Shown: positions 8,337 to 42,957, counted from the first letter of the stretch. The stretch: 64,000 nucleotides of DNA from Alphaproteobacteria bacterium (GCA_017466695.1 JAFTTR010000023.1:49583-113582), one strand, 5' to 3'. Translations and numbers: made by a program. Notes: a model not told the origin generated them from the letters alone.

Positions 8337-11117
8337 CTAGAAGCTATATTCAAACTTACTTACACCTGAATGGTCTTGATAGTCTTTTCTAAATGTCCCA
8401 CTGTATTCAAGTTTAAGCATTGATTTTTCAGTTAAATCAATAGCAACTCCTGATTTAAGCGTTGTACTAAAACGATCAAGCGCTTCACCAGATACGGTGT
8501 ATGTTGCTCCATTAGCAAGCGTATTAAGAGCACTCACGTCATCAGAAATAACATCATATCCAAATTGGATACCTAATGAGGGTCTAACTGCACCTAATGA
8601 CCATTCACCTTTAACACCTACTAATGCTGTCAAATAATTACTTGTCGAAGACCCAACACTCGTTCCAAGCGTATCCCTATATCCTTCTTGCTTAACAGAC
8701 ATGTAGCGAAGTCCGATCTCAGGTGTAATAATTGCTTTTTTATATGCGATATCATATCCCGTCATAATTTCAGCCCCCCAAGAATCCACATTATAATTTG
8801 CAGACCCGTGAGAAGATAAAATTTGTTTTTCTTCATCATATTGGCCTCTTGAATATGAAACAAGTCCAGAAAGCCACCATTGGTTCGGTTGATATTGGAC
8901 ACTTGCAAAAGCGGTATTTGTTGTTGCTTCGGTCCTACGAGCTTCTTCTTTAGATACAGTATCCGAAAAAGCATACCCCACACCAACTGTTAATTCATCT
9001 GAAACCTTCGATTGGACACCAATAACAGCCCCTTTACTTCTTGCTTTAAAACCTTCTCCCATTGTTGATTTTGTGTGGTCATAAAGTCCTTTGATATAAA
9101 CTTTAGCTCTTGCTTTTTCTTCACCACCAGAACGACCAACTGTTGATGAGGTGGCCATTTCACCTTTAACAATCCCAAAAACAGAACCTATATGCTCAGA
9201 GGCAATAGATTGAACTGCTGACTGTTCACTTGCTCCAATAGCTGATAATGCTTTTTTAACTTTTTCTTGTGCTCCTGAAATTTCAGATAGTAATACATTC
9301 AATACCTCATCTCGAAGGGCATTAAAAGCTTCATTCGAACTGTCATTTACCATAAGAGCTTCAACTGTTTTGGCTTTATTTTCATCAATTTTAAGTGATT
9401 GTGAAAGCTCAGGTGCTGTTTTTTTGTCAATTTTATAGGAGCCATTATTTAAATCTTCAATATTAAATAATACATTCGAAGATACTTTCAAATCACTTGC
9501 TGTGTCAAAAATTTGATACTCTCCCAATTCAACATCTGGTGTCAATTTAAAAGACAATTTTGAGGTTTCACTACCCTCAACCAATCCCTTAACTTTACCA
9601 TAATCAGAATGATTGTTTAAACTAACTTTTAAAGTTCCTTCATTTTCAAGAGTAAGACTCCCTGTTTCAAGAACACTTGTTTGAATATCCAATACACCCT
9701 TATTTTTGACAATGATATCTCCTGTACCAGAAATACCTCCATTTGTTAAAAGTCCTCCTTCTACTTGAATTGTACCCACATTATGAATATCGTTAAGAAC
9801 TCCATTGGATGTATTTCGCATAAAAATGTTATCTCCTTTAAAAATCAACATCCCTTCGTTATGAATGGCACCCCCTTCAGCTATACCTTCTTTAGAAACA
9901 ACTTTATTGTCAAAAAACATACCAGAATTAACAGTTAAGTGTGCATTTGATGCGTTTGAAATAGCTCCCCCTCTTGCACTGTCAACACCTTCGGCTTTGT
10001 TACCGATAAACTGAGCTTCTAAATCCGTTATTGTTCCAATATTAGAAATAGCACCCCCTTTGGCTTCTTTAGCTTCTGCCGTGTTATACAAAAACATCCC
10101 GTGGATAAAGTCAAGAGAAATACCCTCTCCATTATAAATAGCACCCCCTTCAGCAATGCTTTCTTTAGAGATAGCCTTATTATCAATATAATCCCCTTTT
10201 AAACTAAACCCACTCGTGCCATAACCAGATCGATATTTTAAGTTAATACCACCACCTAAAGCAGTTCCTGTTTCTGAAAGGGCATAGTTACCTAAAAAAT
10301 CACCTTCTAAATCAATATCCCAACCATAAAGAAATACAGCGCCACCTCCTGCTTCACCAGAAACAGATTCAGCATAGTTACCAATAAAGTGGCTATGAAC
10401 AGGATTGCTATATCCACCATAGTTTACAAGCGCACCCCCATTGGCTCTTGTACCTCCTTTTGCCCAGTTTGCAACAAAAATAGCCTTAGGTGCTCCTAAA
10501 TTTTCTTGACTGTAAATAGCACCTCCTTGTGCCGTTCCCTCACTGAGTGCTCCATTTGCAATATAATTCCCTTCCATGCTACTTACTTCCCAACCATACA
10601 CATTACCATAGGCCCCCCCTCTGGCTGTAGAAGCTCCATTTTGAATAATATTATTCACAAAATCACCTGTAAGTGTTATCGTTCCACCATACCAATTACT
10701 ATAAGCTCCCCCTAATTGATCCTTAGTAGAAATATCAACCCATGTACCTGAAATATCACCATCTGGACTATGATATCTTGGATTTGATTTTTCTGGATCA
10801 TAATTAGCAACAATCTCTATTTCTTTTCCAAACAGCTGAACAGCATATGTTCTTGAAACTTCATCATTCCCATAACTTTTATTTTTTAAATCAATTTCAT
10901 AATATTTATTTGTTAAGGCATTCCCTCCCTTATCATATTCAGGAAGTAAAACCGCATTTTCATGTTCTGAAGAAACTTCTTTTTTAATATATGGCGACTC
11001 AGCCATTGCCGGCATTGACAAAAAGATGAACCCTAAATTTGCAAGGAGACATTTTTTAAGAACATTTAAATATCTTTTTTTAAGCTCTCTGAGTGTGGTG
11101 CGTGAAAAAGTTGTCAT
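8337..11117 (-). CDS. Autotransporter (type Va) with Pmp-like GGAI repeats, 926 aa
   Basis: Extended signal peptide, repeated GGA(I/Y)xN / F..N motifs, C-terminal beta-barrel ending KFEYSF, AGGAGG RBS. Confidence 0.88.
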   Translation of the reverse strand: MTTFSRTTLRELKKRYLNVLKKCLLANLGFIFLSMPAMAESPYIKKEVSSEHENAVLLPEYDKGGNALTNKYYEIDLKNKSYGNDEVSRTYAVQLFGKEIEIVANYDPEKSNPRYHSPDGDISGTWVDISTKDQLGGAYSNWYGGTITLTGDFVNNIIQNGASTARGGAYGNVYGWEVSSMEGNYIANGALSEGTAQGGAIYSQENLGAPKAIFVANWAKGGTRANGGALVNYGGYSNPVHSHFIGNYAESVSGEAGGGAVFLYGWDIDLEGDFLGNYALSETGTALGGGINLKYRSGYGTSGFSLKGDYIDNKAISKESIAEGGAIYNGEGISLDFIHGMFLYNTAEAKEAKGGAISNIGTITDLEAQFIGNKAEGVDSARGGAISNASNAHLTVNSGMFFDNKVVSKEGIAEGGAIHNEGMLIFKGDNIFMRNTSNGVLNDIHNVGTIQVEGGLLTNGGISGTGDIIVKNKGVLDIQTSVLETGSLTLENEGTLKVSLNNHSDYGKVKGLVEGSETSKLSFKLTPDVELGEYQIFDTASDLKVSSNVLFNIEDLNNGSYKIDKKTAPELSQSLKIDENKAKTVEALMVNDSSNEAFNALRDEVLNVLLSEISGAQEKVKKALSAIGASEQSAVQSIASEHIGSVFGIVKGEMATSSTVGRSGGEEKARAKVYIKGLYDHTKSTMGEGFKARSKGAVIGVQSKVSDELTVGVGYAFSDTVSKEEARRTEATTNTAFASVQYQPNQWWLSGLVSYSRGQYDEEKQILSSHGSANYNVDSWGAEIMTGYDIAYKKAIITPEIGLRYMSVKQEGYRDTLGTSVGSSTSNYLTALVGVKGEWSLGAVRPSLGIQFGYDVISDDVSALNTLANGATYTVSGEALDRFSTTLKSGVAIDLTEKSMLKLEYSGTFRKDYQDHSGVSKFEYSF

Positions 11118-11269: not shown

Positions 11270-11444
11270 ATTTTTTCAAAAAAAAGAAGTGTTTTTTTGA
11301 AATTTTCTTAAAACATATTGAAAAATAAAGACTATTTTATATGACAAAAAGTGGCAAAAATATCAAAATTTTGTATTTTTTTGTTTTTTAAGAGTAAAAA
11401 ATAGGGATAAAATGACTTAATTTCCAGCCCCCAAAAAACTCAAA

Positions 11445-11469
11445 AAACGTGTAAAAAAAACGACCGTTT
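11445..11469. repeat. Right 25-bp inverted repeat (IR-R)
   Basis: AAACGTGTAAAAAAAACGACCGTTT, the exact reverse complement of 11195-11219. Confidence 0.95.
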
Positions 11470-11535
11470 TTTTTACTCAGTTTTAAATAAAATAACTTAT
11501 TGAAAAATATAAAATATATTAACTTTTCAATCTAT

Positions 11536-11588
11536 AAAAAAACCTCCAAAATGAACTTTTAAATAAAATTCGTTCAAAATGGAGGTTT
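11536..11588 (-). terminator. Intrinsic terminator of MFS gene (long loop)
   Basis: AAACCTCCA...TGGAGGTTT stem with inner TGAAC/GTTCA pairing, followed by a T tract on the minus strand. Confidence 0.55.
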
Positions 11589-11607
11589 ATCTAGTTATGA
11601 GCAAAAT

Positions 11608-12828
11608 CTATGCATCTTGACTCTTTAATATTTTGCTTAATGGATATAAAGAAATTAAGAAAATAGATAAATACACAAAAAATGAGTTCTGTAATGAAAT
11701 ATCATCTAATAAGAATTTAAATAAAATAAGCAGACCTCCAGCAATTGAGCGAGAAATCATATTATTCACTGAAGCAACCGTTGACCTTTCTTCTGACCCC
11801 ACATATGTGTGCAATCTTGAGATATTTGCCATAGTAAAAGATAATTGAAAACCAATAACAATACAAATAAACGTTAAAAGAACAAAGCCCAAAACTGGAG
11901 ATTGGAAACGAACAACAGCTGCACAGAATAAAAACGAAATCACAAACAAAACAAATGTAACTTTACCCAACGTTTTCATTGGCAAAACACCAATTGTTTT
12001 TGGAAGCAAGATACCAGCTAATGCTCGACATCCATGATTAATAGCATAGATAACACCAAACAAAACAACAGGTATTCCAGCCGTTTTCATCAAAGGTTGA
12101 AAACTCCACACAAATACCATTGTTGTCCCAGCTAACATACCAGAATAAAACATATAATACTTAATTTTTTCATTCCGAAGTGCATTTTTAGAAATTTCAA
12201 ATAACTCTTTATATTTTGCTTTAAGTCCTTTGATGCGTTTTCGAGCAGAGGGTACTTTTGGTAAAAAGAAAAGTAAACCGATTGCAGATACATTCAAAGC
12301 AATTTCAATTGAAATTAACACAGGGAAACCATATTTTTTATATAAAATCGGCCCTACAAAAGAAGCAATGGCCGTCCCAATTGACATGCAAAAATTCATT
12401 TTACCATAGCGTTGAAGCATACGATTTGTTTTATTTTGACTTTTTAAATAATCATAAATATAACCATCAGCTACGCCGGCATAAGAGGCTTTTGAAAGTG
12501 AATATAAAACCTCCCCTGCCAAAATAATCCAATAAGCATTATTTTTAAATGGTTCAAATCCAGAAACCAAAACGGACCATAAAACCAGTCTTAACAAAAA
12601 CATTGAAAATGAAAAAACCAGCATATTCCTACGAGGGAAAATATCTCCTAAATAACCAGATGGAATTTCAAATAAAAGCGCCGTAATTGAAAATATCCCT
12701 TGGAACAAAAAGAAATCACCAGCTGTCAATCCATTTTCTTGATAGAAAAATAACAAAACTGGTAACATCAAAATTTGCGTTTGTAAAAATGTTGAAAAAT
12801 TAAATACCCTAAGTGGATTGGAAAACAT
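11608..12828 (-). CDS. MFS transporter
   Basis: About 12 TM segments; EIPSGYLGDIFPRR corresponds to MFS motif A. Confidence 0.85.
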   Translation of the reverse strand: MFSNPLRVFNFSTFLQTQILMLPVLLFFYQENGLTAGDFFLFQGIFSITALLFEIPSGYLGDIFPRRNMLVFSFSMFLLRLVLWSVLVSGFEPFKNNAYWIILAGEVLYSLSKASYAGVADGYIYDYLKSQNKTNRMLQRYGKMNFCMSIGTAIASFVGPILYKKYGFPVLISIEIALNVSAIGLLFFLPKVPSARKRIKGLKAKYKELFEISKNALRNEKIKYYMFYSGMLAGTTMVFVWSFQPLMKTAGIPVVLFGVIYAINHGCRALAGILLPKTIGVLPMKTLGKVTFVLFVISFLFCAAVVRFQSPVLGFVLLTFICIVIGFQLSFTMANISRLHTYVGSEERSTVASVNNMISRSIAGGLLILFKFLLDDISLQNSFFVYLSIFLISLYPLSKILKSQDA

Positions 12829-14325: not shown

Positions 14326-15060
14326 CTATAATGAAAAGTTCTTGCCTAAATATGTTCTACGGACATTTTCATCTGCAATAATTTCTTCAGGTGTTCCTTG
14401 TTTTAAAACAACCCCATCATGCAAAATATAGGCTCTATCAATGATACTTAATGTTTCCCGTACGTTATGATCCGTAATTAAAACACCAAGACCTCTGTTC
14501 TTGAGTTGACCAACCAACTCTTTAATCTCCCCAACAGCAATAGGATCAATCCCAGCCAGTGGTTCATCTAATAAAATATAAGATGGCTTTGAAGCCAAAG
14601 CACGTGCAATTTCTAAACGTCTTCTTTCCCCTCCAGACAGAGCTCTTGAAGGTGAAAATCTTAAATGTTCAATTGAAAACTCTTTTAAAAGAGAATCAAG
14701 CTCTTGTTCTCTTTTTTCTTCATTTTTTTCAACAACTTCTAAAACAGCACGAATGTTATCTTCAACATTCAACCCTCTAAAAATAGAAGCTTCTTGTGGT
14801 AAATAACCAATCCCCAATCTCGCACGGCGATACACTGGGAATGACGTAATATCAATTCCATTAAGTGTAATTTTCCCAGAGTTTGGAGCAATTAAACCTG
14901 TTACACAATAAAATGACGTTGTTTTCCCTGCTCCATTTGGGCCCAAAAGCCCAACAGCCTCCCCTTGTTGAACAGACAAAGACACGTCTTTTAAAACAGT
15001 CCTTTTTTTATAATTCTTACTCAAATTTGAAATCACAAGTCCGCGTTGCGGTACAATCAT
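14326..15060 (-). CDS. lptB: LPS export ABC ATPase
   Basis: GPNGAGKTT, YLPQEASIF, LSGGERRR, LLDEP.AG.DP, ITDHNVRETL. Confidence 0.95.
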   Translation of the reverse strand: MIVPQRGLVISNLSKNYKKRTVLKDVSLSVQQGEAVGLLGPNGAGKTTSFYCVTGLIAPNSGKITLNGIDITSFPVYRRARLGIGYLPQEASIFRGLNVEDNIRAVLEVVEKNEEKREQELDSLLKEFSIEHLRFSPSRALSGGERRRLEIARALASKPSYILLDEPLAGIDPIAVGEIKELVGQLKNRGLGVLITDHNVRETLSIIDRAYILHDGVVLKQGTPEEIIADENVRRTYLGKNFSL

Positions 15061-16430
15061 TTATCCTCACTTTCATTTTCAAAATCAGCTGGAATTAAAC
15101 TACCTGTTATCCGATTTTGTGTTTCAGCATCATAAGATTTTAATGAACTGATACCCGTCTTTAAATTCATATTTGCCCATTTACCATTTAACACACTATT
15201 TCCTTGATGTAAAGAAACATTATCATAAATATCAATCATTTCAGTTTTAGGGTTATATACACCATAGTTTCCTTGAATGCGCTGGACTCCATTTGAAGCT
15301 TTTACATGCCCAAGTGCAACGATTTTTTCAATCTCTTGGTCATTTGAGGCTGTTTCTTTATAAAAAACATACATCTTGTCAGCTAAAATCAATTGATTTC
15401 CTTCTTTTACCAATGCATCTTTGTTTAAATAAACAAGCTGATTTAAGTTTTTGGGAATTTCAACAAATTGATATTTTTTTAACGATTGAATAACATCTAA
15501 TATATCTTGAGCTTCTTTAAATAAAATAATTTCTTCTGCTTGAACCGTCTTTTTTTGCTCAAATGCTTGCGCTTTTTTATAGGCTCTTACTTTAACAAGA
15601 ACTGTTTTATTATAAGAATCCTTTTTGTGCGTTAAAGTAATTTCTTCAGCTCGAATATGGTCATTTTTTTGATAAATATGGGCATTTTGAACAGCTGTAA
15701 TCGTATTTAAAGCCTGATCAACAATAAGCCCATTTTCACTTGTGATTAAAATATTATTTTTATTCTTTTTAAAATAAGCGTCTTGATCTTTAAAATCCAA
15801 TCCGGCAATTGCTTCTATTTTCTTTTCTTTATCAAACAAAAGTGTTTTTGTCTTCCCTTTAAAATCAATTTTTTCCCCTTTGTTTGTTACAAAAAAGCCT
15901 TTTGCTTGAAGCATTCCTGCAACCCCTTTGATAAAAACATTATTATCACTTGAAATCGTGTTCTTATCATAATCATAGACAACCTTTGTTGAAAGTGCTT
16001 CATACCCTGTATCTGTTGAAGTATTAATTTCATCTTCAAAATAAAGATATTTTTCATTTTGAAAAGCAAGCGCATAAGGGCTAATAGAGGTTAATTTCAT
16101 CCCATCAGATGTTTGATAAGTCGCTTTTGGATTATTTAATTTTAAAATCTTTTTGGCTGAATCAATTTCTTGAACCGTTTCAGCAACTACATTTAAAGGA
16201 TTGTTGCGCTTGTCTTTTGAGAAAAATTGAACATCTTCCATATCAACGCCCCCCCCTTGTTTTACATTCAAGGATGGAACAGCAACTGAAAACTTCTCTT
16301 TTTCTTCCACAAAAGCAGGCCAAACTAACATCGTTGACGCCAATAAAAATGCAAAAATAGGCAAACACCGTTTAAACATAAACACACGGCGAGAATGAAT
16401 TTTGATTTTTAATAGGCGAAGTGTAAACAT
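15057..16430 (-). CDS. Fused LptC-LptA LPS bridge protein
   Basis: N-terminal HSRRV...LP + TM + LptC-like beta-jellyroll; C-terminal LptA/OstA-like repeats (IRAEEI, LADKM, IQGNYGVY, LHQGNSVLNG); single ORF between kdsD and lptB. Confidence 0.78.
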   Translation of the reverse strand: MFTLRLLKIKIHSRRVFMFKRCLPIFAFLLASTMLVWPAFVEEKEKFSVAVPSLNVKQGGGVDMEDVQFFSKDKRNNPLNVVAETVQEIDSAKKILKLNNPKATYQTSDGMKLTSISPYALAFQNEKYLYFEDEINTSTDTGYEALSTKVVYDYDKNTISSDNNVFIKGVAGMLQAKGFFVTNKGEKIDFKGKTKTLLFDKEKKIEAIAGLDFKDQDAYFKKNKNNILITSENGLIVDQALNTITAVQNAHIYQKNDHIRAEEITLTHKKDSYNKTVLVKVRAYKKAQAFEQKKTVQAEEIILFKEAQDILDVIQSLKKYQFVEIPKNLNQLVYLNKDALVKEGNQLILADKMYVFYKETASNDQEIEKIVALGHVKASNGVQRIQGNYGVYNPKTEMIDIYDNVSLHQGNSVLNGKWANMNLKTGISSLKSYDAETQNRITGSLIPADFENESEDK

Positions 16431-18176: not shown

Positions 18177-18740
18177 ATGATGAAGAACTTTCTTTTTGTT
18201 CTTTTTATTTTTTTTCATGCATTTTTAGCAAATGCAGAAGAAATTTCATCCCCTCAAACAAAAAAAATGCATATCATCACTTCTGCTTTCGAGCCAGATT
18301 TGTGCCTCAATGGATATGCAGGCTCTTGGACTGGCGCTTGCATTTGTTTTCAAAAAGGGGCCTATCCTAATAGATATTGCGACCCCAACTTCAAGAAAAT
18401 CGACATTCATCAAAAGGTAACAATTAAAGATAAAACATTTGTTCTTTCAGGTGGAATTGTCAACTGGGATGAAGCAAATAAATTTTGCTCACAATTAAAA
18501 AAAGGCTACAAATTAGCAACACGTGAAGATTTTAACTGCAAAAAAACAGGTATTGGCTGTTTAGATAATAAAATTTTCATTCCTATTAAAGAAACATATG
18601 GGCATAGAGGCTTTTTTTGGCTAGAAGAAAGTGAGAATACTGAGAAAGCCTATTATGCAGACCTAAATGATGGAACCGTTTACAACACGGCAAAATCAAA
18701 TTCATCAACTATGCAAGCATTGTGCGTTAAAGAGGATTAA
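18177..18740 (+). CDS. Secreted Cys-rich protein with DUF1566/C-type-lectin-like C-terminal fold
   Basis: GGGAG RBS, signal peptide (MMKNFLF...ANA), 8 Cys, WDEANKFC...GYKLAT...FFWL pattern. The ORF-track start 18027 is too far upstream. Confidence 0.55.
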   Translation: MMKNFLFVLFIFFHAFLANAEEISSPQTKKMHIITSAFEPDLCLNGYAGSWTGACICFQKGAYPNRYCDPNFKKIDIHQKVTIKDKTFVLSGGIVNWDEANKFCSQLKKGYKLATREDFNCKKTGIGCLDNKIFIPIKETYGHRGFFWLEESENTEKAYYADLNDGTVYNTAKSNSSTMQALCVKED

Positions 18741-18742
18741 AA

Positions 18743-20281
18743 ATGAAATTAAAATTTTCACTTTTACTTTGTTTTATCAGCTGTTCAAGTTTTGCACTTG
18801 AAATTGATCAAAATAGAGAAATTGAAATTAATAATATGTATGAAGAACTGGAATATACATTTGATGAGCCTTTTATTCTTCAAAACCCATATAAAAGAAA
18901 TGCTCTTTCAGCTTTGGTAAAATTTCCAACTAAACAAGAAGCACAAATTGAACTTCAAGTTCTTTCAAAAGAGGGAAAGCCTGAGATAACACATACATTT
19001 TCTGAATATAAAAAAGAACATGAAATTCCAGTTTTAGGGCTTTATCCTAATTCAAACAACAAAGTTTTGCTCACAGCTAAATATAAAGATGGCACAAGTC
19101 AAACAACAACCCTTTCAATCCCCACAAAAAAGGCTGATAAGAGAGCCTTGTTTACCATCACGAACAAAAAAGATGAAAAAATAAAATATCATTATTTACA
19201 TGGGGGAATTGTTTTTGATGAAAAAGGGACTATTCGTCTTGATTTTAAACCAGAATATGAAATGCTTTATTTTCTAAACGGCTCTTTTGTTGGGGAAGAT
19301 AGAAATAAAGGTCTCATACAATATAATATATTAGGGAAAAAGGAAAAGGTTTATACCTATCCAGCTCATTTCACCTCTTTCACCCACGGGTTAACACAAA
19401 AACCAAACAAAAACTTCCTTGTTATTGGATCATTTGACAACCAACAAGCAACCGTAGGCAATCAACAAACGCAAACACAACGAGAATTTGTAATTGAGCT
19501 TGATTATCAAACAGGTAAAATGGTCAACAAAATTGATTTGGCTCAACTTTTAAATCCAGATCGATCTGTTATTATTAAATCAGATACTCAAAATTATGGA
19601 TTAAACAATTGGTGTCACATCAATTCCGTTGACTATAACAGCGAAGATGAAAGCATTGTTGTTTCGTGTCGACACGTTGGACTTGTCAAAATAAATGAAA
19701 AAACAAAAGAACTTGATTTTGTTATCGCGCCACATAAAGGATTTGAAAAATCAGGTCGAGATGGTTCAGGCCCAGATCTTTCAAACAAACTCCTCACTGC
19801 CTTAGATAAAATGGGAGATGCCTTACCTGACAGCGTTCAACAAGGAACCCAAAGTTACCCGGATTTTAAATGGCCAACCAAAACACATGATGCCAAAACG
19901 CTTGGGGATGGAATTTACAGTATCTTTGACAATTCTGGCCCCTTATATGACAAAACAATGGTCACCTCCCCTCATTCAAATGCGCAAGTTTTTAAAATAG
20001 ATGAAAAGAATAAAACCATTCAAAGCCTTTGGTTTGAGCCCCTTGCCTATCACTCAGAATCTGGTTCAAGTGTTTTATATAACCCTAATGAAAATGAAGT
20101 AACCGTTTATTTAAGCATTGTTAAAGACCCTTATCAACAAGGGATTGCAACTGGAAAACTCATTCGGTATGATTTAACCACACATGAAAAACTTTTCGAA
20201 GCAACTCTTTATCGAGGGGGAGAAACATACTTTTATGGGCTGATGCCATTTTCATTTTATCAAAATGAGGGTTTAAAATAA
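18743..20281 (+). CDS. Aryl-sulfate sulfotransferase (ASST) with N-terminal Ig-like domain
   Basis: Signal peptide; NPY...LSALV.F and HEIPVLGLYPN N-domain; FTHG, WCHINS, SCRH, THDA matching the ASST catalytic His/Asn/Arg set. Confidence 0.85.
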   Translation: MKLKFSLLLCFISCSSFALEIDQNREIEINNMYEELEYTFDEPFILQNPYKRNALSALVKFPTKQEAQIELQVLSKEGKPEITHTFSEYKKEHEIPVLGLYPNSNNKVLLTAKYKDGTSQTTTLSIPTKKADKRALFTITNKKDEKIKYHYLHGGIVFDEKGTIRLDFKPEYEMLYFLNGSFVGEDRNKGLIQYNILGKKEKVYTYPAHFTSFTHGLTQKPNKNFLVIGSFDNQQATVGNQQTQTQREFVIELDYQTGKMVNKIDLAQLLNPDRSVIIKSDTQNYGLNNWCHINSVDYNSEDESIVVSCRHVGLVKINEKTKELDFVIAPHKGFEKSGRDGSGPDLSNKLLTALDKMGDALPDSVQQGTQSYPDFKWPTKTHDAKTLGDGIYSIFDNSGPLYDKTMVTSPHSNAQVFKIDEKNKTIQSLWFEPLAYHSESGSSVLYNPNENEVTVYLSIVKDPYQQGIATGKLIRYDLTTHEKLFEATLYRGGETYFYGLMPFSFYQNEGLK

Positions 20282-21021
20282 TGAGTGAAATTATTCTTTT
20301 TAGCGTGCTTGGTTTTTTTGCAAGTATTATTGATGGGTGTATTGGCATGGCCTATGGAACAATTTTAGCCTCCATATTTACTTTAAATGGCGTTCCATTA
20401 TTGGTTTCAAGTGCCAGCATTCATTTTTCTGAAATTTTCACAACGCTTGCCTCTGGCCTCTCGCATTTATCATTTAAAAATGTTGATTTTAAATTATTAA
20501 AAAAAATCATATTCCCCGGCGTTCTTGGAGCCCTCATTGGGGCAGCAATGCTCACCTATGTGAATGATCAAATTTTAAAACCAATTGTTGCCTCTTATTT
20601 AATTGGACTTGGAATATATATTCTTTTAAAACAACACATTAAAAAGAGAACAAAATCATTTAAACGATTTAAACTTCTGGGCATGGTTGGTGGATTTTGT
20701 GATGCTGCAGCTGGAGGAGGCTGGGGTCCAATTGTAACTGGAACACTTATTTCAAGAGGACACATCCCTCACAAAACAATTGGCACAGTGAATCTGACTG
20801 AATTTTTCGTTACCCTTTCTCAATCAGCTATCTTTTTTTCGGCCATTGGATTGACTTCTTTCAATATTGTTGTAGGTCTCATATTAGGAAGTGTCATTGC
20901 AGCCCCATTTGCAGCTTATATTGTTAAAAGAATTAATCCAATGGTATTGATTAAATTAGTTGGATGTATTATCATCATCACCAATATTATTACACTAATT
21001 ACACTTTTTTATGAGTTATAA
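20281..21021 (+). CDS. TauE/SafE family sulfite/sulfonate exporter
   Basis: DGCIGMAYG, HFSEIFTT..SG.SH, GGGGWGP-like GGGWGP, TIGTVNLTEFFV; about 8 TM segments. Confidence 0.85.
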   Translation: MSEIILFSVLGFFASIIDGCIGMAYGTILASIFTLNGVPLLVSSASIHFSEIFTTLASGLSHLSFKNVDFKLLKKIIFPGVLGALIGAAMLTYVNDQILKPIVASYLIGLGIYILLKQHIKKRTKSFKRFKLLGMVGGFCDAAAGGGWGPIVTGTLISRGHIPHKTIGTVNLTEFFVTLSQSAIFFSAIGLTSFNIVVGLILGSVIAAPFAAYIVKRINPMVLIKLVGCIIIITNIITLITLFYEL

Positions 21022-21879
21022 ATGAATCACTTAAAAATATTAGAAGCAGAAGCTATTGATTTAATTAGAGATGTTGTTTTTTCAAACGACATTGAAAGGC
21101 AAATTGTTTTTTATTCGATTGGAAAAGATTCTTCTTGCCTATTGCATTTGTTTAAAAAGGCTTTTCATCCTTTTCCCATTCCGGTTAAATTTATGCATAT
21201 TGATACAGGCTGGAAATTTAAGGAAATGTATGAATTTCGCAACAAGATTCAAAAAGAAATTGAGTTGATTGTGTATAAAAATCCAAAAAATTTAAACCCA
21301 TTTACAGATGGCCCTTTATACACAGATGTTATGAAAACAGAAGCGCTTAAACAAGCTATTAATTTATATGATATTAAAATTGCCTTTGGAGGATCTAGAA
21401 GAGATGAAGAAAAATCAAGGGCAAAAGAGAGAATGGTTTCTGTTAGAAATGAATATCACAAATGGGATCCACGCAACCAAAATCCTGAAATTTCACCCCT
21501 TTATAATACATTTTTTACACCCAAAACATCTTTGAGGGTATTTCCTCTTTCAAACTGGACCGAACTTGACATTTGGGAATATATCAAGCAAGAAGAAATT
21601 GATATTGTCCCCTTGTATTTTGCAAAGAAAAGACGGGTTCAAACGCTTCCTTCTGGTATGATGATTGCAACAGAAAATGAAACTGGAGAACTTAAAAAGG
21701 TAAGATTTAGAACGCTTGGTTGTTATCCCCTCACCGGAGCTGTTCTATCTGATGCAACAACGATTGATGCAATTATTGCCGAACTAAAGCAAACCCAATA
21801 TACAGAGCGTATCACAAGAATTATCGACTACGATACAGAAGGCTCTATGGAAAAGAAGAAAAAGGATGGTTATTTTTAA
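21022..21879 (+). CDS. cysD: Sulfate adenylyltransferase subunit 2
   Basis: YSIGKDS PP-loop, HIDTGWKF, GGSRRDEEKSRAKER, WDPRNQ.PE, RVFPLSNWTE, RFRTLGCYP. Confidence 0.93.
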   Translation: MNHLKILEAEAIDLIRDVVFSNDIERQIVFYSIGKDSSCLLHLFKKAFHPFPIPVKFMHIDTGWKFKEMYEFRNKIQKEIELIVYKNPKNLNPFTDGPLYTDVMKTEALKQAINLYDIKIAFGGSRRDEEKSRAKERMVSVRNEYHKWDPRNQNPEISPLYNTFFTPKTSLRVFPLSNWTELDIWEYIKQEEIDIVPLYFAKKRRVQTLPSGMMIATENETGELKKVRFRTLGCYPLTGAVLSDATTIDAIIAELKQTQYTERITRIIDYDTEGSMEKKKKDGYF

Positions 21880-23249
21880 TGAAAAGTGTGTTTAAATTTA
21901 TTTGTTGTGGAAATGTAGATGACGGGAAATCCACACTGATTGGCCGATTACTTCTTGATACCAATAATGTCAAAAAAGACCAATTGGAAGATGCATTAAA
22001 AGCGTCTAAAAAAAATGGGTCTGATAAAATTGAACTTGCCATGTTATTAGATGGTTTATTATCAGAACGTGAACAACAAATTACAATTGATATTGCTCAC
22101 CGTTTTTTTGATTATAGGGATATTCGCTTTCATATTCTTGATTGCCCTGGGCATGAGCAATATACAAAAAATATGGCTATTGCTGCAGCAGAAGTAAACA
22201 CAGCCATTGTGGTAATTGATTCTACAAAAGGAATTAAACCTCAAACACTCAAACATATTGAAATTTGCAATTTATTTAATATCCAAAACATTTTAGTTTG
22301 TCTAACAAAAACTGACTTATTGAAAAATGACAAGGGAAAAAATGATTTAAAAGAAATCAAATCTCTTGAAGAGGACGTGAAAAATCTGCTCAACAATTAT
22401 ACGTTTAATTATGAAATTGTTCCTGTCAGTGCTGTCACAGGTTTTAATACGGATTATGTATTAAAGTTTTTGTATAACTTCGCCATTTATCAGATTGAAA
22501 AACAAGAAAAAAATCAAAAACAGATACTACATATTTTAAATTCAAAACTTTTTAAAAATACAAGATATTATTACGCCAAATCTGTGTTTAAAAATACTAT
22601 TTTAGAAAATGAAAAACTCACAGTATATCCACAAAATACGCCTATTACAATCACAAAACAATTCGATAATGGATGTTTTAATATTTTAGAAAATGTTGAT
22701 ATATCTAAAGGAGATTGTATCACAAACACCCCTGTTCTAATTTCAAATAAAATTTCTTGCAAAAGTATCTTTTTTGATAAAAAGACCCCTTCCATGTTAT
22801 TTAAACATGGCTCTTCTATCAAAAGAGTAATTCAATTAACGCCTTCTTCTTTAGAATTAGATGGTGAAATTGTTTTTAACAATATTGAAGATGTCAAGCA
22901 AAATGGATTTGGCATTTTCATTGATGAAGTGACGAAAAAAACGCTCGGTTGTGCCGTTTTTAAAAATAATCAAAAAGAAATTTTGCCTAAAAACACAACC
23001 GTTAACTATATCATTTATGGTGGAACCCATTTAAAACGTATCGAAAAAGCGTTGGAAATTAAAAACCAATTTCAACCTGCTCCATTTATTTTAGATGAAT
23101 CTGATGTAAGCTATTTAAAATCACCTGAATTGATAATGCTAGCCGAATACATCAACGGACAGGGATCATCAACGATCTGTTTAACCGAAACAGCTCCGAA
23201 AAAAAGGCCAAACAATTGTATTTTAATTAATCTTAATCAGGAGAAATAA
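21879..23249 (+). CDS. cysN: Sulfate adenylyltransferase subunit 1 (divergent, with degenerate APS-kinase tail)
   Basis: CGNVDDGKSTLIGRLL, EREQQITID, DCPGHEQY, G4 variant TKTD, FIDEVTKKTLG; eroded domains II/III. Confidence 0.85.
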   Translation: MKSVFKFICCGNVDDGKSTLIGRLLLDTNNVKKDQLEDALKASKKNGSDKIELAMLLDGLLSEREQQITIDIAHRFFDYRDIRFHILDCPGHEQYTKNMAIAAAEVNTAIVVIDSTKGIKPQTLKHIEICNLFNIQNILVCLTKTDLLKNDKGKNDLKEIKSLEEDVKNLLNNYTFNYEIVPVSAVTGFNTDYVLKFLYNFAIYQIEKQEKNQKQILHILNSKLFKNTRYYYAKSVFKNTILENEKLTVYPQNTPITITKQFDNGCFNILENVDISKGDCITNTPVLISNKISCKSIFFDKKTPSMLFKHGSSIKRVIQLTPSSLELDGEIVFNNIEDVKQNGFGIFIDEVTKKTLGCAVFKNNQKEILPKNTTVNYIIYGGTHLKRIEKALEIKNQFQPAPFILDESDVSYLKSPELIMLAEYINGQGSSTICLTETAPKKRPNNCILINLNQEK

Positions 23250-23250
23250 G

Positions 23251-23697
23251 ATGAAATTTTCAATCCTTTCATGTATCACTCTTCTCTTTTTTTCAGTACC
23301 CACATTAGCTGAATGGCAAATCAAGCAAGAGAATTTAAAAACTTTTGAAAAATTTGCAAAAACAGATGAAGTACAACTCTATACAGGAGACAATATTTTA
23401 CACGACTTTGAAAATCTGCCAACAGAAGCTCACAAATTTGTTTTGGTTAAAATAACTGTTAGTAATCAAGACACAAGCATATCACCTTTAAATTCTTTAG
23501 CGTTCAAACTCAAAATTAATGATAAAACCTATTCAAGAATTGATAATGACAAATTTTTGCTCAATTATAACATCAAACCATTTACAAGATTAAAAATCAA
23601 AAAAGGAACGCATGAAGGGCATTTATTATTTGAAATACCAACAGCTGAACTTTCAAATAACGTGACTCTTTTTTATAACGATAAACCGATTCAATAG
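23251..23697 (+). CDS. Secreted DUF4352-like beta-sandwich protein
   Basis: Signal peptide; FVLVKITVSN...F.L...GHLLFEIP pattern. Confidence 0.5.
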   Translation: MKFSILSCITLLFFSVPTLAEWQIKQENLKTFEKFAKTDEVQLYTGDNILHDFENLPTEAHKFVLVKITVSNQDTSISPLNSLAFKLKINDKTYSRIDNDKFLLNYNIKPFTRLKIKKGTHEGHLLFEIPTAELSNNVTLFYNDKPIQ

Positions 23698-23706
23698 GAT
23701 AATTTT

Positions 23707-25122
23707 ATGCTAACTTTAAAAAAATCTTTTTTCATCAGTGGAGCTATTCTTTTAGCACTTATCACACTTAAACATCAAAAAGACAATATTTTTCAATATA
23801 TTAAACATACAAATAGAGGGGATATTCCGCAAGTTCTTTTTAACAATGAAGAACTTATTCCACCTTTTACACGTGACACAAACTCTTACCATGTCATCTC
23901 TGCAAGCACATTAAAACCCAATATTCTTCAAATTGGAGATATTAAAAAAGAAATTAAAATTGAAAATTTTGAAACAAACCCATCCATTCCATTAGATGTA
24001 AATGGGCAAAAAATCAACATTCATTTATATCCCAAAGAATATCCAAAATATTCAATGAAACAGTTTTCTAAATCAACAACAAACAACGCTATTACGATCA
24101 CAAGCTTTGACCCCAATTGTACCAAACCATCTTTCAATTTTATTGTTTCTGAAAAAGGCAAAATTCTTTTTTATCGCCGGACCCGACTGGAACTTTGTGC
24201 TTCAGATTTCAAACAAACAACTCTTCCAAATGGGGAGAAAGTATATTCTTATATGCAACAAGAAAAACCCGTTCCCCCATTTCACTACTTGAGTGGTTCA
24301 CTGGTTGTAATGAATAGTCAATTTGACGTAATTGATAAATTAACCATTCAAGAAACAGACAAGCACCCTGCTCTTATGGTTGAAAATCATGATTCACTGA
24401 TATTAGATAAAAATCACTTTGTTCTTTCTGCTTATCATGAAACTGAAATTTTTCATCCTGAAACAGAAGAGCCCACCTTTGTTGCCCAAACTGTGCTTCA
24501 AGAAATTAAAGATGGAAAAGTCATTTTTGATTGGGTCAGTTCCGATTATCCCCATTTATATACTTATTTTAAATCCCCTGATAATTCCAGAACATATAAT
24601 GATTACATGCACTTTAATTCGATTATTGTTGATCCAAAAGATAATAATTTGATTATTTCTTGCGCCGGTATTTCAAGCATCCTCAAAATTAACAGAAAAA
24701 CCGGGGATATTATGTGGACATTGGGTGGCCCTGGGGATGACTTTAAACTGGATGAACAACATCATTTTTATGGCCAGCATAGCCTTTCTTTTGATAAAGA
24801 AGGAAACCTTATGCTTTTTGATAATCAATCCCATTATTTTGCACAAAGAATTGAGAAGAGCCCTAAACTACCTCATAGCCGAATTTTAAAATTTAAACTT
24901 GATGAAAAAAACAAAAAAATCTTGAACGCTGTTTCTATTCCTCTTGATTTTCAAACAGACACCATGGGATCCGTTTATCAAACAGCTGAAGATACCTATA
25001 TCCTTGCCATGGGTGGGCATAACAAAGTGCAGAAAATAAAAGTCGTTGAAGAAAAAGCAACAAAATTGTGGGAGCTTTCTTTAGATTATCCAACTTATCG
25101 AGCTTATGAAGTTAAAGATTAA
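23707..25122 (+). CDS. Second arylsulfotransferase-family beta-propeller protein
   Basis: N-terminal anchor; ENHD, DYMHFNSI, ILKINRKTGDIMWTLGG, FYGQH, LFDN, MGSV motifs. Confidence 0.8.
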   Translation: MLTLKKSFFISGAILLALITLKHQKDNIFQYIKHTNRGDIPQVLFNNEELIPPFTRDTNSYHVISASTLKPNILQIGDIKKEIKIENFETNPSIPLDVNGQKINIHLYPKEYPKYSMKQFSKSTTNNAITITSFDPNCTKPSFNFIVSEKGKILFYRRTRLELCASDFKQTTLPNGEKVYSYMQQEKPVPPFHYLSGSLVVMNSQFDVIDKLTIQETDKHPALMVENHDSLILDKNHFVLSAYHETEIFHPETEEPTFVAQTVLQEIKDGKVIFDWVSSDYPHLYTYFKSPDNSRTYNDYMHFNSIIVDPKDNNLIISCAGISSILKINRKTGDIMWTLGGPGDDFKLDEQHHFYGQHSLSFDKEGNLMLFDNQSHYFAQRIEKSPKLPHSRILKFKLDEKNKKILNAVSIPLDFQTDTMGSVYQTAEDTYILAMGGHNKVQKIKVVEEKATKLWELSLDYPTYRAYEVKD

Positions 25123-26008: not shown

Positions 26009-26983
26009 ATGCAAGAAGTAGAAATCTCAGGTCGTGAAATTTATCGCTCATTTAATGAAGTTATAAAAATTGATGATGGCTATTGTTTTGGCGTGTTAGG
26101 GGGCAAAAATTTTATGGTTGCCAGAACCACTAATGCCAACAATATGACATTCATTCGCTGGTGTTCGGGTAAAATGCCTTATGGGGGCAATAAAAACGTT
26201 ATGGGACCTAAAGCTGACAAATTATTAAAGATGATTTTAGAACGTATTCCCAATATACCTGAAAATGAAGAAATTATTTCTCAAATGAAAATCATGGTTG
26301 AAAAAAATAAAAAAGCAACTTCTTATTACGGTGTTTCAAAAGATGATGCCAAAGCCATGACGTCATTTGAACAAATAGAACAACAAATGAAAAAAGAGCG
26401 TGAATTTAAAAAATTCATGGATAATAAAGCTGTCTATGAACAAAAAAATGCTGCGAAAAAGGACGAAAAAGAAGCTAAAAAAGCTCAAAAATTAGCAGAA
26501 AAACAACGCCTAAAAGAACAAAGAATACTTGAAGAAAAAAAACGCATTCAAAAAGCGCGTGCATTAAAAATTATGAAAGAGGAAGAAAGGGTCTATCCTC
26601 AAATGGTTTTTAACCAACCTGAGAATGAAACTCCTACTATTTTTGTTGATGGAAATACAGCCATTATTTTAGGTCATATTAACAAAAACTTCTTTCGAAT
26701 TAAACTTTCTGACAAAAATCCATCTTTTTTTATCATTCAAAATGATGAAAAGGTCAGAAAAATGAGCATTGCTGAATTGCAACAAATTTTGGTTGCTATT
26801 AACGAAAATCCAAATCACAATGAGGAACATGACGCTATTTTGGAACGAGTTGCTTCAGATTATGATAAATTCAGACAACTCAAATTCCCTGAAAATAAAA
26901 ATGTTCAGAAAGAAAAAATCGCAATCAGCAAAAATATTTTAATTCAAAAGGGATTATTAACAGCTCAAAACGTTATATCTTAA
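26009..26983 (+). CDS. Hypothetical protein with central K/E-rich coiled coil
   Basis: AGGAG RBS, 324-aa ORF, no signal peptide, no recognised family. Confidence 0.7.
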   Translation: MQEVEISGREIYRSFNEVIKIDDGYCFGVLGGKNFMVARTTNANNMTFIRWCSGKMPYGGNKNVMGPKADKLLKMILERIPNIPENEEIISQMKIMVEKNKKATSYYGVSKDDAKAMTSFEQIEQQMKKEREFKKFMDNKAVYEQKNAAKKDEKEAKKAQKLAEKQRLKEQRILEEKKRIQKARALKIMKEEERVYPQMVFNQPENETPTIFVDGNTAIILGHINKNFFRIKLSDKNPSFFIIQNDEKVRKMSIAELQQILVAINENPNHNEEHDAILERVASDYDKFRQLKFPENKNVQKEKIAISKNILIQKGLLTAQNVIS

Positions 26984-27035: not shown

Positions 27036-29348
27036 TTACCCATTTTGATTTAGGTAATTAGATGACAAATATCTCATGGGATGATGCTGTGCATCTAATC
27101 TTACTTTGTTTTGCCATAACCCATATCCACCATTTCGAATAATATCTTCTTCTTTTAAAGGATATGGGAAATCACACTCTTTTAAATAAACAGTTTTACC
27201 CTTAGGTAAAATTAATTTTTTAACATCTTTTAAAGAGGTGTTATGTAAAGAAACTTCATCACAATTTGAAAAATCAAGCACATCCGTCTCTTTTAATAAA
27301 ACATTTGTCAAATGAACTCGTTTCACCCTATTATCCATTTTAAAATCATGGATTGAAACACAATTAAAAGGGGCAAACATAAAAGATGTTATACCCCTAA
27401 TATCAAGAAAAAGCTCTTCTGGGAAGGTTGAAAAAATCAAATCCACCCTCTCTGCTTTTTTAGGGAGTGTTATTTCTTTAACATTTTCCAAATAACTCTC
27501 TGAAATTTGAACACTCCCCGTTACATGAGATAAATCTAAATGATCTATATTAAATTTTGTAACCCCACTTTCAAAATTACGAACTTGAGGTGGCAGTTTA
27601 AATACAGGCGCTGTAATTTGCATCCGACATAATGAAACATCTGAACAATCTAACGACAACCCTTCTAATGATTTCAAGTGGTTACTCAAATGCATTTGTA
27701 ATGAAAAGTATCTATTCTTTATACCTTTAAAATCATGAATATTAGGCGATAAAAGCCTCAATTCATCAGCATGAAATGGCAACAAATTCTGATGTTTTTT
27801 AGAAAAATAATAACATTCAAAAATACCATATATATCCATATTTTTAAAAGAAACTGAAGAAGCAACCCCATCTGAAGAAACGGAAAGTTTAGGTCTTGAA
27901 TCAAAAAATGCATCTAAAGCATTTAATTTGGCTGTAAGTGAGAGATATTTTCGGTTCCAATTTCCAACACAAATACGCCCATCAACTCCTTTAGAATATA
28001 TGAGATTTTGATGTTTTAAAATATCATATTCATCCATATTAAAATAGTAAGTAGAAGCTTCAGCATCTTTATAACATCCATCAACAAGAGAAAAGGCTCC
28101 TCTCAACTTCGGCTGATATTGAGATAAAAATTCATCCAATTGTTCACGCACGGCTGGTATTTTCAGCCCATACATATACCCAGATTTAAAATAAACATTC
28201 CCATTTTCATTAACAAAAGGCTTAATACTTATTCGAGCCAACTTTTTGGCTGGATTTTTTGAATTAATCCCAAAAGCTACAAAAACACCATTCCCAATTT
28301 CTTCTGGTAAATAATGCGAATTAATCCCTTTTGGTGTTAAACAAGAAGCCCACTCATCCTTCGAATACTCTGCGTAAGCACTCATTTTGGCAATATCAGA
28401 TGGGTATTTTGAAAGAACAAGCATATCAATTATGTCATTTTTTTGCTCATTCCCTTTGTGAACAGCTTGCATCAGATGAAAATCCTGATATTGTTTTGAA
28501 TAAAATTCTCTTAAATTAAATAATCGGTTTTTTAAATCATCACTTGAAGCAAGAGCTCCTTTTGACATCACTTCATAAAATAAAACAGGCGTCATGAATG
28601 CTCTTGGCATTGAAAAACGAGACCGACTTTTAAATTTCGAATACGTATTTAAATAATCTTGATACGAATGAATTCCATTTAAATAAGAAACAAAATCTTC
28701 AGCAGCGTTGGAAGAAGAAACACGAGTTAATATTTGAGAGAGAAAATCTGACTGTTTTTTCAAAAAACGCCCTGCTTTTGTACCAATAACATGCATATGG
28801 CATTTTTGATCTTTTGCAGACTGAACCAAAAATGAAAAGCCTTTTTCAACAACTTTAACAGACTCATCATTCGGAATTGAAAGATTTATCTTATCAATCA
28901 AATTTTTCAAAAACAAAAAACCAGAAGAAACTGGGTTGATTTTCAAATAAACCCTCTCTTTATCTTGAAAAAAAGAGGGATAAGAAGGTCTGTACCCTTC
29001 CCTTAATTTTTGTCCTTTTAAAACGATTTTTTGAATATCATTATCATAATAGCGCACCTGAGCCCTAAAATCTCGCACAAGCTGATTTAATAATTCTAAA
29101 TCATTTAAATTCTGTTTAATTTTATCGTAAGGAATTAAATCTTCAGCAGCATAATTTTCAGCCAATAAAAAAAGACGAAAAATAGTGAAAAAAGCCTTTT
29201 TATCCCCTTTATTTTCAAAAAGGAATCTTTGGACCTTTTTCTTCACCCTTTTTATTCGAAAATCTAAAAAGTCTTTTTCCTCTTCAGCTGATAATAATTT
29301 TAACATATATTCTCCTTTAAACACGAAGAAGAATTGTACCATACCCAC
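27036..29348 (-). CDS. Hypothetical 770-aa protein with phage-like central domain and LRR-like C-terminus
   Basis: SKYPSDIAKMS...W.SC...VFVAFG...LARISIKPF...YG core; LKSLEGL and L.L....LP-type repeats. Likely start is MLKLL after an AGGAG RBS. Confidence 0.65.
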   Translation of the reverse strand: MGMVQFFFVFKGEYMLKLLSAEEEKDFLDFRIKRVKKKVQRFLFENKGDKKAFFTIFRLFLLAENYAAEDLIPYDKIKQNLNDLELLNQLVRDFRAQVRYYDNDIQKIVLKGQKLREGYRPSYPSFFQDKERVYLKINPVSSGFLFLKNLIDKINLSIPNDESVKVVEKGFSFLVQSAKDQKCHMHVIGTKAGRFLKKQSDFLSQILTRVSSSNAAEDFVSYLNGIHSYQDYLNTYSKFKSRSRFSMPRAFMTPVLFYEVMSKGALASSDDLKNRLFNLREFYSKQYQDFHLMQAVHKGNEQKNDIIDMLVLSKYPSDIAKMSAYAEYSKDEWASCLTPKGINSHYLPEEIGNGVFVAFGINSKNPAKKLARISIKPFVNENGNVYFKSGYMYGLKIPAVREQLDEFLSQYQPKLRGAFSLVDGCYKDAEASTYYFNMDEYDILKHQNLIYSKGVDGRICVGNWNRKYLSLTAKLNALDAFFDSRPKLSVSSDGVASSVSFKNMDIYGIFECYYFSKKHQNLLPFHADELRLLSPNIHDFKGIKNRYFSLQMHLSNHLKSLEGLSLDCSDVSLCRMQITAPVFKLPPQVRNFESGVTKFNIDHLDLSHVTGSVQISESYLENVKEITLPKKAERVDLIFSTFPEELFLDIRGITSFMFAPFNCVSIHDFKMDNRVKRVHLTNVLLKETDVLDFSNCDEVSLHNTSLKDVKKLILPKGKTVYLKECDFPYPLKEEDIIRNGGYGLWQNKVRLDAQHHPMRYLSSNYLNQNG

Positions 29349-42846: not shown

Positions 42847-42957
42847 CAAATGTCCCCCTTCATAAAATGACATGATACCCTGTCAAAATCCATCAACACA
42901 TAGAAAAACAAAAAAATATCTCCTTCATTTTCTCATTTTTCTTTCGTTCATATACTA

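Follow-up and report, generated by a model that had tools for sequence, protein, structure and literature searches.

Predicted exported aryl-sulfate sulfotransferases are conserved beside a kinase-less CysDN pair in uncultured gut Alphaproteobacteria

A 64,000-nucleotide stretch of DNA from an alphaproteobacterial genome (GCA_017466695.1, JAFTTR010000023.1:49583-113582; the whole stretch is called the window below) carries a seven-gene operon that combines two aryl-sulfate sulfotransferase (ASST) genes, ASST1 and ASST2, with genes for a TauE-family permease, the sulfate adenylyltransferase subunits CysD and CysN, a cysteine-rich protein (g1), and a DUF4352 protein. Comparison with related loci identifies the core of this operon as a lineage-specific, horizontally mobile module of uncultured gut Alphaproteobacteria. 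Every part comes from a known family, and both the TauE-cysDN unit and the Cpz8/Cpz4 relay of caprazamycin biosynthesis are known precedents. Apparently new is that exported ASSTs occur as a conserved set with a kinase-less CysDN pair, a sulfate-type permease, and an orphan lectin-like partner; we found no paper that joins an ASST with cysDN. We tentatively read the module as a system for harvesting sulfate esters, in which the sulfate is taken up and then activated to adenosine 5′-phosphosulfate (APS).

The evidence for a functional unit begins with gene neighborhoods, for which we compared loci from genomes (L001 to L014), from metagenomes (L089 to L092), and from contigs fetched for individual homologues. 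Every examined locus encoding a kinase-less CysN of the divergent clade described below has an ASST gene beside cysDN, and the source is an alphaproteobacterium wherever a taxon is recorded. This adjacency holds down to 45% CysN identity and takes two forms. In the first (L001 to L007, L013, L086, L089, and L090), g1-ASST1 lies upstream on the same strand, and the order is (ChrA pair)-(TauE)-g1-ASST1-(TauE)-CysD-CysN, with the variable members in parentheses. In the second (L008, L010/L087, and L088), the order is (ChrA)-CysD-CysN, followed downstream by a convergent ASST2-like gene. A first-pass annotation of the window had named conservation of the co-localization across genomes as a point on which its proposal of a linked system could fail, and the link holds through changes of gene order. 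In L086 and L088, resolvase or recombinase genes border the module, and the flanking genes vary between lineages. All-against-all clustering of the ±10-kb flanks found no other recurrent gene family.

Loci with an intact CysN-CysC fusion (L009, L011/L081, L012, L014/L082, L084, L171, and L172) have no ASST gene. These kinase-bearing loci read CysD-DUF2061-CysNC, apart from L011/L081, where the DUF2061 gene is missing, and two of them are labeled Gastranaerophilales or Gastranaerophilaceae. The DUF2061 gene encodes a membrane protein of 72 to 79 amino acids (aa), lies between cysD and cysNC in L009, L012, L014, L084, L091, L171, and L172, and is absent from all ASST-linked loci. In a rough, independent count, in which contigs were matched by size, the longest contig was shared with an ASST1-clade protein for 12 more clusters of kinase-less CysN and for none of the kinase-bearing clusters. 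As a background, an ASST-like gene occurs within 10 kb of only 2 of 142 canonical cysN loci (1.4%; 1.8 Mb). Both of these loci (L070 and L077) are Saccharopolyspora cysN-cysC loci, possibly from Cpz4-like natural-product clusters. A scan of metagenomes with a CysN profile returned canonical CysN almost exclusively, with only L089 to L092 falling in the divergent clade.

The first-pass annotation had also reported that cysH, cysI/J, and an intact cysC are missing from the window. Domain scans, which covered a nonoverlapping set of open reading frames (ORFs) of at least 90 aa, confirmed this: profiles for APS kinase, APS/PAPS (3′-phosphoadenosine 5′-phosphosulfate) reductase, and sulfite reductase matched none of these ORFs in the 64 kb. 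Similarly, no cysH, cysI, cysJ, cysK, or intact cysC gene was found in about 15 related neighborhoods or in the window.

The kinase-less state of CysN separates the ASST-linked loci from their relatives. CysD matches PF01507 at 162 bits and NF003587 at 354 bits over residues 1 to 285 (subfamily cut-off, 195); it falls below the NCBIfam equivalog cut-offs (362 bits versus 397 to 413), and its identity across L001 to L014 is 63 to 99%. CysN matches GTP_EFTU at 140 bits and has the motifs GNVDDGKST (G1), DCPGH (G3), and TKTD, rather than NKxD, at G4. NCBIfam CysN models match it only at residues 2 to 190, with scores of 190 to 197 bits that lie under every cut-off, and its domains II and III are shortened. 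Its constant pairing with CysD supports a CysN role. In a database search, the clade around this protein comprised 92 clusters at 230 to 1,007 bits, versus at most 182 bits for canonical CysN. Clade members of about 515 to 538 aa end in an intact APS kinase (P-loop GLSG(S/A)GKTT, with a PF01583 match), and the window CysN and its relatives of 403 to 502 aa have no intact kinase; a regular-expression label for the kinase missed four full-length forms that have PF01583. When aligned to the kinase-bearing proteins P0054, P0070, and P0087, the last ~85 residues of the window CysN are recognizable as an APS-kinase remnant in which the P-loop has become GGTHLKRIE and the second half of the domain is gone. 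There is accordingly no PF01583 match in this protein, whose CysC part breaks off after ~85 residues of a domain that is ~170 aa when complete. The suggestion in the first-pass annotation that the fused CysC is not intact was thus borne out, both by the destroyed P-loop and by the truncation. Erosion of the kinase is graded, since forms of about 500 aa keep the length without the motifs and a 414-aa form has no domain left. Kinase-bearing forms branch basally in a maximum likelihood tree, and the loss is therefore derived. Judged from these sequences, the ancestral form of the clade was a CysN-CysC fusion whose kinase has been decaying stepwise in the ASST-linked lineages.

The discovery of aryl-sulfate sulfotransferases in gut bacteria dates back decades, and the enzymes serve as biocatalysts. 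Their natural substrates, donors and acceptors alike, and their physiological role are still unestablished according to a 2026 review, which also describes an ASST-type "aryl sulfatase II" that, given no acceptor, acts simply as an arylsulfatase (PMC13426309). ASST1 of the window combines the beta-propeller catalytic domain (PF05935, 172.3 bits; cut-off, 24.2) with the N-terminal Ig-like domain (PF17425, 69.2 bits), both over the gathering score. Its similarity to E. coli AssT (3ELQ) is only about 87 bits, and yet His252, His356, Arg374, and the sulfo-accepting His436 are all identical in the phmmer alignment. The same four catalytic residues are kept in relatives of the ASST1 clade, which comprises about 80 clusters at 368 bits or more, versus 154 bits or less for other ASSTs. 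The N-terminus, MKLKFSLLLCFISCSSFA, carries one hydrophobic segment, and periplasmic export is predicted from hydropathy only. Paralogues of about 600 aa, which belong to the ASST1 clade and carry an N-terminal extension of about 90 aa, were found at L169 (297-2114) and L170 (10001-11782). They are solitary, away from cysDN, and lie beside glycosyltransferase or unrelated genes; the contig of one of them matches in size that of a 509-aa ASST1-clade protein.

ASST2 matches PF14269 at 88.6 bits (cut-off, 27) and PF05935 at 72.8 bits and is predicted to be a membrane-anchored or exported beta-propeller of the Arylsulfotran_2 type. The best solved relative is PDB 9KF4 (E = 8e-16), an entry named "Sulfotransferase" on which no literature was found. 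The three catalytic histidines have counterparts in the motifs NHD (His252), MHFNS (His356), and GQHS (His436). The equivalent of Arg374 (motif SSRH; SGRN in 9KF4) is not kept in the alignment, where ASST2 and ASST2-like proteins have SCAG, SSAS, or SMAS. The ASST2-like copy of L088 has a lipobox, and the ASST2 type is therefore probably exported as well. In a relative of 81% identity (L002, 11835-13251), a frameshift or a sequencing error breaks ASST2 into two reading-frame pieces that overlap, and L004 retains only a short ASST2-like fragment (11400-11684). The second ASST therefore looks dispensable.

The constant companion of ASST1 is g1, an exported, Cys-rich orphan protein that matches no Pfam or NCBIfam family. 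An alignment of nine sequences shows an EGF-like module, C-x-NGYAG-x-W-x-GAC-x-C...RYC, with an invariant Cys pattern and, after it, another conserved domain. An AlphaFold model built from only 9 sequences (mean predicted local distance difference test score, 80.7) was compared with known structures using Foldseek. It matched snake C-type lectin-like proteins (snaclecs), LOX-1, and the C-terminal domain of Legionella Lcl (8Q4E) at E values of 7e-5 to 4e-4 and probability 1.00, with moderate TM-scores of 0.37 to 0.6 (0.5 to 0.67 when normalized to the target). The model thus shows a C-type-lectin-like fold. The family is small, with only 37 clusters, and is always placed immediately upstream of ASST1 (L001 to L007, L013, and L090); several of its clusters match the same contigs as ASST1-linked kinase-less CysN clusters. 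We conclude that g1 is an orphan accessory of ASST1. Two further ideas about this protein were not kept. A role as a substrate for tyrosine sulfation, suggested by the invariant stretch YYADLNDGTVY, was set aside, as the model puts this stretch in core beta-strands. A ChrA-g1 fusion of 321 aa (P0278, on a Logan contig of 47,661 bp) was rejected as a Rosetta-stone link: the g1 signal peptide is kept mid-protein, the protein ends early, and it is a single Logan sequence, which makes read-through or an assembly error its probable origin. The other accessory protein matches PF11611 at 30.4 bits (cut-off, 25.9) and has a signal-like N-terminus, and its gene is limited to the window's close relatives, L001 to L003.

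Two kinds of permease accompany the module. TauE is a multi-pass protein that matches PF01925 at 128.5 bits (cut-off, 32.6). Outside the module, L092 reads CysNC-CysD-TauE without an ASST, its TauE being 50% identical to that of the window, and a TauE gene lies within 10 kb of 9 of the 142 canonical cysN loci. A split ChrA is linked to the module in L004 to L008, L086, L088, and L090 (seven distinct loci, as L086 is the same contig as L007), directly upstream of g1-ASST1-cysDN or of cysDN-ASST2, and occurs without TauE in L006, L008, and L088. The window also has a ChrA pair, about 25 kb from the operon, whose halves match PF02417 at 115 and 133 bits and are 36 to 48% identical to the operon-linked halves of L086 and L088. 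No permease lies near the module in L087 or L013. The occurrence in L092 and at canonical cysDN loci, together with the substitution by ChrA at the same position, ties TauE to cysDN rather than to the ASSTs. In an E. coli cysA mutant, sulfate uptake is complemented by a TauE-family protein, the fitness profile of a TauE homologue tracks that of sulfate adenylyltransferase (PMC11535334), and CysZ of Corynebacterium glutamicum is cited as a characterized sulfate transporter of the TSUP family (PMC5840216). On this comparative evidence, TauE is most likely a sulfate importer feeding CysDN. Of the two roles that the first-pass annotation had offered for it, export of an activated donor to the ASSTs finds no support, given that TauE-family proteins encoded beside cysDN have been shown in experiments to import sulfate, that L092 has no ASST, and that ChrA accompanies or replaces TauE; the other, uptake of sulfate set free from aryl sulfates, is the better fit.

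Harvest of sulfate esters is the reading toward which we lean. Exported ASST1, with lectin-like g1, and ASST2, with the DUF4352 protein, would act at the envelope, removing sulfuryl groups from sulfate esters of the host or the diet and thereby freeing sulfate. TauE, or in relatives the split ChrA alone or with TauE, would take up the freed sulfate, as characterized homologues and gene context suggest, and the divergent CysD and CysN would, by homology, convert it into APS. Synthesis would end at this point, because the ancestrally fused APS kinase, as its sequence shows, is inactivated and eroding. A consumer of APS would lie outside the operon and could be an unlinked kinase, sulfotransferase, or APS reductase; unlinked APS reductases occur in many Alphaproteobacteria. 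We favor this direction because of the transporter evidence and because free sulfate is scarce in animal guts, where it is only micromolar (PMC5840216). The arylsulfatase behavior described for an ASST-type enzyme and the complete catalytic set of ASST1 also speak for it.

The harvest of sulfate needs net sulfate release by the ASSTs and an unlinked APS consumer, and several observations weigh against it. ASSTs are transferases, and net release by these enzymes is putative. No APS consumer is visible, given the lack of reductive cys genes in the window and the related neighborhoods, and the host appears to be reduced and dependent on salvage, which makes a full reductive pathway less certain. 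Gastranaerophilales, from the same sulfate-poor habitat, have no ASST beside cysD-cysNC. A further point concerns the convergent slot downstream of the cysN gene. In L081 (labeled Gastranaerophilales), an intact Sulfotransfer_2-like gene (P0241; 11583-12530, minus strand) is convergent with cysNC; its product has the motifs PKNASTS and DDPIKR and, at 21.7 bits, falls just short of the Pfam cut-off of 22. The same slot in L082 (11560-11979, minus strand) holds a decayed Sulfotransfer_2-like copy with an internal stop and without its N-terminal half, and in L008, L087, and L088 it is held by the ASST2-like genes. This looks like the replacement of one sulfotransferase by another, which favors an outward flow and suggests that the CysDN clade serves sulfation rather than assimilation.

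An outward flow, in which exported ASST-fold enzymes draw sulfuryl groups from CysDN-activated sulfate that reaches them through TauE or a CHR permease, as APS or on an aryl carrier, seems to us unlikely. It needs either new donor chemistry together with the export of a nucleotide or else an unlinked set of kinase, sulfotransferase, and carrier. In the direct version, CysDN would make APS, TauE or CHR would pass it out, and the ASSTs would sulfate envelope, host, or dietary acceptors. The operon would be self-contained in this respect, with no other conserved family in its flanks and no reductive cys genes nearby; kinase loss coincides exactly with ASST linkage, and the ASST2-like genes occupy the slot of the PAPS-type sulfotransferase of kinase-bearing relatives. 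We nevertheless regard this version as the least probable of the readings considered here, as the known substrates of TSUP and CHR proteins are small anions and not nucleotides, TauE accompanies cysDN even where there is no ASST (L092), and two of the loci (L087 and L013) have no permease nearby. E. coli AssT is not known to use PAPS, and no periplasmic nucleotide-dependent sulfation is known. The donors that the 2026 review lists for arylsulfotransferases are only aromatic and N-hydroxyimide sulfates (PMC13426309). Aryl sulfates, the only established ASST donors, would be at work in a relay of the Cpz8/Cpz4 kind, in which an unlinked cytoplasmic enzyme would sulfate a phenolic carrier, a TSUP-type permease would export the aryl sulfate, and the ASSTs would pass the group on. 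Such a relay has a precedent in caprazamycin biosynthesis (cited in PMC4257720 and PMC13426309), and the catalytic set for a ping-pong reaction appears intact in ASST1. The named TSUP substrates (toluene sulfonate, from the family name, and those of sulfite and organosulfonate exporters; PMC5840216) are also nearer to aryl sulfates than to nucleotides. However, CysN has lost the kinase needed for PAPS, and neither the window nor the related neighborhoods encode a PAPS-dependent sulfotransferase, a phenol-forming enzyme, or an APS kinase, which leaves the relay very improbable.

It is also conceivable that the ASSTs and the permease-cysDN unit have separate functions and travel together on a mobile island, merely co-expressed. 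The resolvase and recombinase genes beside the module, the lineage-specific flanks, and the solitary ASST1-clade paralogues of about 600 aa in similar genomes are in keeping with such an arrangement. The pairing, however, outlasts both the reshuffling of gene order and the replacement of ASST1 by the ASST2 type, the genes are translationally coupled through 1-nt overlaps, and the association is 100% here versus 1.4% in the background, so we consider an absence of direct coupling rather improbable.

The link between ASSTs and sulfate transport and activation spans a radiation of gut Alphaproteobacteria that, at 90% identity, comprises at least 64 protein clusters. It turns the natural role of ASSTs into a testable hypothesis, either the harvest of sulfate from host or dietary esters where free sulfate is scarce or service as the outer arm of trans-envelope sulfation, and either outcome has a bearing on the remodeling of sulfated phenolics, steroids, and glycans by gut microbes. 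If the outward flow were true, it would be the first bacterial extracytoplasmic sulfation pathway for envelope, host, or dietary molecules to be fed by cytoplasmic activation, and ASSTs would gain a physiological donor. The graded decay of the fused APS kinase offers, in addition, a natural example of domain loss after a change of pathway partner.

The layout of the operon agrees with the description in the first-pass annotation, which had claimed seven genes spaced by −1 to +9 nucleotides. The ORFs lie on the plus strand where that annotation had placed them (Table 1), and the successive junctions measure +2, −1, 0, −1, +1, and +9 nt. The domain identities claimed there, for which it had proposed a check by profile hidden Markov models, were likewise recovered as Pfam matches to Arylsulfotrans, TauE, PAPS_reduct, GTP_EFTU, DUF4352, and Arylsulfotran_2. 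A hydropathy scan, used without a dedicated signal predictor, found a single N-terminal hydrophobic segment in each of g1, ASST1, the DUF4352 protein, and ASST2, at least six segments in TauE, and none in CysD or CysN. Four products are thus predicted to carry export signals, and CysD and CysN are predicted to be soluble.

Table 1. Positions of the operon genes and of the ChrA pair in the window
Feature	Position	Strand	Family or remarks
g1	18177-18740	+	ORF call; without Pfam or NCBIfam family
ASST1	18743-20281	+	Arylsulfotrans PF05935 and Arylsulfotran_N PF17425
TauE	20281-21021	+	PF01925; TauE/TSUP-family permease
CysD	21022-21879	+	PAPS_reduct PF01507; sulfate adenylyltransferase small subunit, PP-loop SIGKDS
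CysN ORF	21879-23249	+	GTP_EFTU; divergent GTPase part 21879-22989, CysC remnant 22990-23249
DUF4352 protein	23251-23697	+	PF11611
ASST2	23707-25122	+	Arylsulfotran_2 PF14269 and Arylsulfotrans PF05935
Split ChrA (CHR family) permease pair	49998-51190	-	PF02417; away from the operon here

In Pfam scans, neither a thioredoxin-like nor a DsbB-like domain turned up in the operon or in its flanks, Rfam identified no RNA element, riboswitches included, within the operon or upstream of it, and promoter and terminator scans of the operon gave nothing above shuffled sequence. The G+C content of the window is 29 to 42%, and the operon has the same composition as its flanks. The nearest genome records are gut metagenome-assembled genomes labeled Alphaproteobacteria, with the CysN of L001 being 96% identical, and the sequencing runs that contain the window stretch are gut and fecal metagenomes, sheep gut among them; no RNA-seq run containing the operon was found. 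A literature search on RF32-type gut Alphaproteobacteria and sulfur found nothing useful.

Elsewhere, the window encodes a 2,848-aa protein with repeats of the Chlamydia polymorphic membrane protein type (34327-42873, minus strand) and a 926-aa autotransporter (8337-11117, minus strand), and the locus of a relative, L087, encodes an 847-aa ankyrin-repeat protein. Together with the EGF- and lectin-like features of g1, these proteins suggest close contact with eukaryotic cells. A single ORF of 457 aa (15057-16430, minus strand) matches LptC at residues 89 to 196 and LptA/LptD_N at residues 341 to 426 and may be an LptC-LptA fusion. Two orphan proteins without a Pfam match, of 324 aa (26009-26983, plus strand) and 770 aa (27036-29348, minus strand), are kept in L001 to L003 but evolve fast (identity, 42 to 96% and 62 to 75%, respectively).

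Among known systems, the assT-dsbL-dsbI operon of E. coli CFT073 (3ELQ), whose AssT is periplasmic and PAPS independent, is the closest match for ASST1, which has the same PF17425 and PF05935 architecture, a predicted export signal, and the same four catalytic residues. In contrast to that operon, there is no dsbL or dsbI here, the Cys418-Cys424 disulfide positions are absent from ASST1, and the partners are instead the lectin-like orphan g1, a permease, and cysDN. The C-type-lectin-like fold of the g1 model is shared with animal C-type-lectin-like domains and with the C-terminal domain (8Q4E) of Lcl of Legionella pneumophila, a protein that recognizes sulfated glycosaminoglycans (PMC11162425). 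Unlike them, g1 has an extra EGF-like Cys-rich module, and it has no detectable sequence similarity to them.

The inner half of the module resembles assimilatory operons. In fpr2-cysIXHDNYZ of C. glutamicum, Ac3H11_578 of Acidovorax, and TK06_RS10770 of Pseudomonas fluorescens, a TauE-family permease adjoins cysD-cysN, as it does here, and the permease of those operons is probably a sulfate importer (PMC11535334, PMC5840216). The present operon differs from them in having no cysH or cysI, a CysN with a dead kinase remnant, and inserted genes for exported ASST-type enzymes. The CysD and CysN-CysC pairs of NodPQ and RaxPQ, which make PAPS for a specific sulfotransferase, are matched in the wider CysDN clade, whose members are likewise CysD with CysN-CysC fusions and at least one of which (L081) lies beside a Sulfotransfer_2-like gene. 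In the lineage of the window, however, the kinase is lost, so that no PAPS would come from the pair, and the neighboring transferase is of a PAPS-independent type. The first-pass annotation had held that ASST chemistry and cytoplasmic sulfate activation are not normally expected to be coupled, which overlooks the two-step sulfation by Cpz8 and Cpz4 (cited in PMC4257720). The Cpz8/Cpz6/Cpz4 pathway of caprazamycin biosynthesis in Streptomyces is the only established pathway that unites PAPS with an ASST-type enzyme, and ASST2 is of the same broad Arylsulfotran_2 type. It differs from the system described here in that no PAPS-dependent sulfotransferase, type III polyketide synthase, or functional APS kinase is encoded in the window or the related loci, that the ASSTs here are predicted to be exported, and that the host is a gut Gram-negative bacterium rather than an antibiotic producer.

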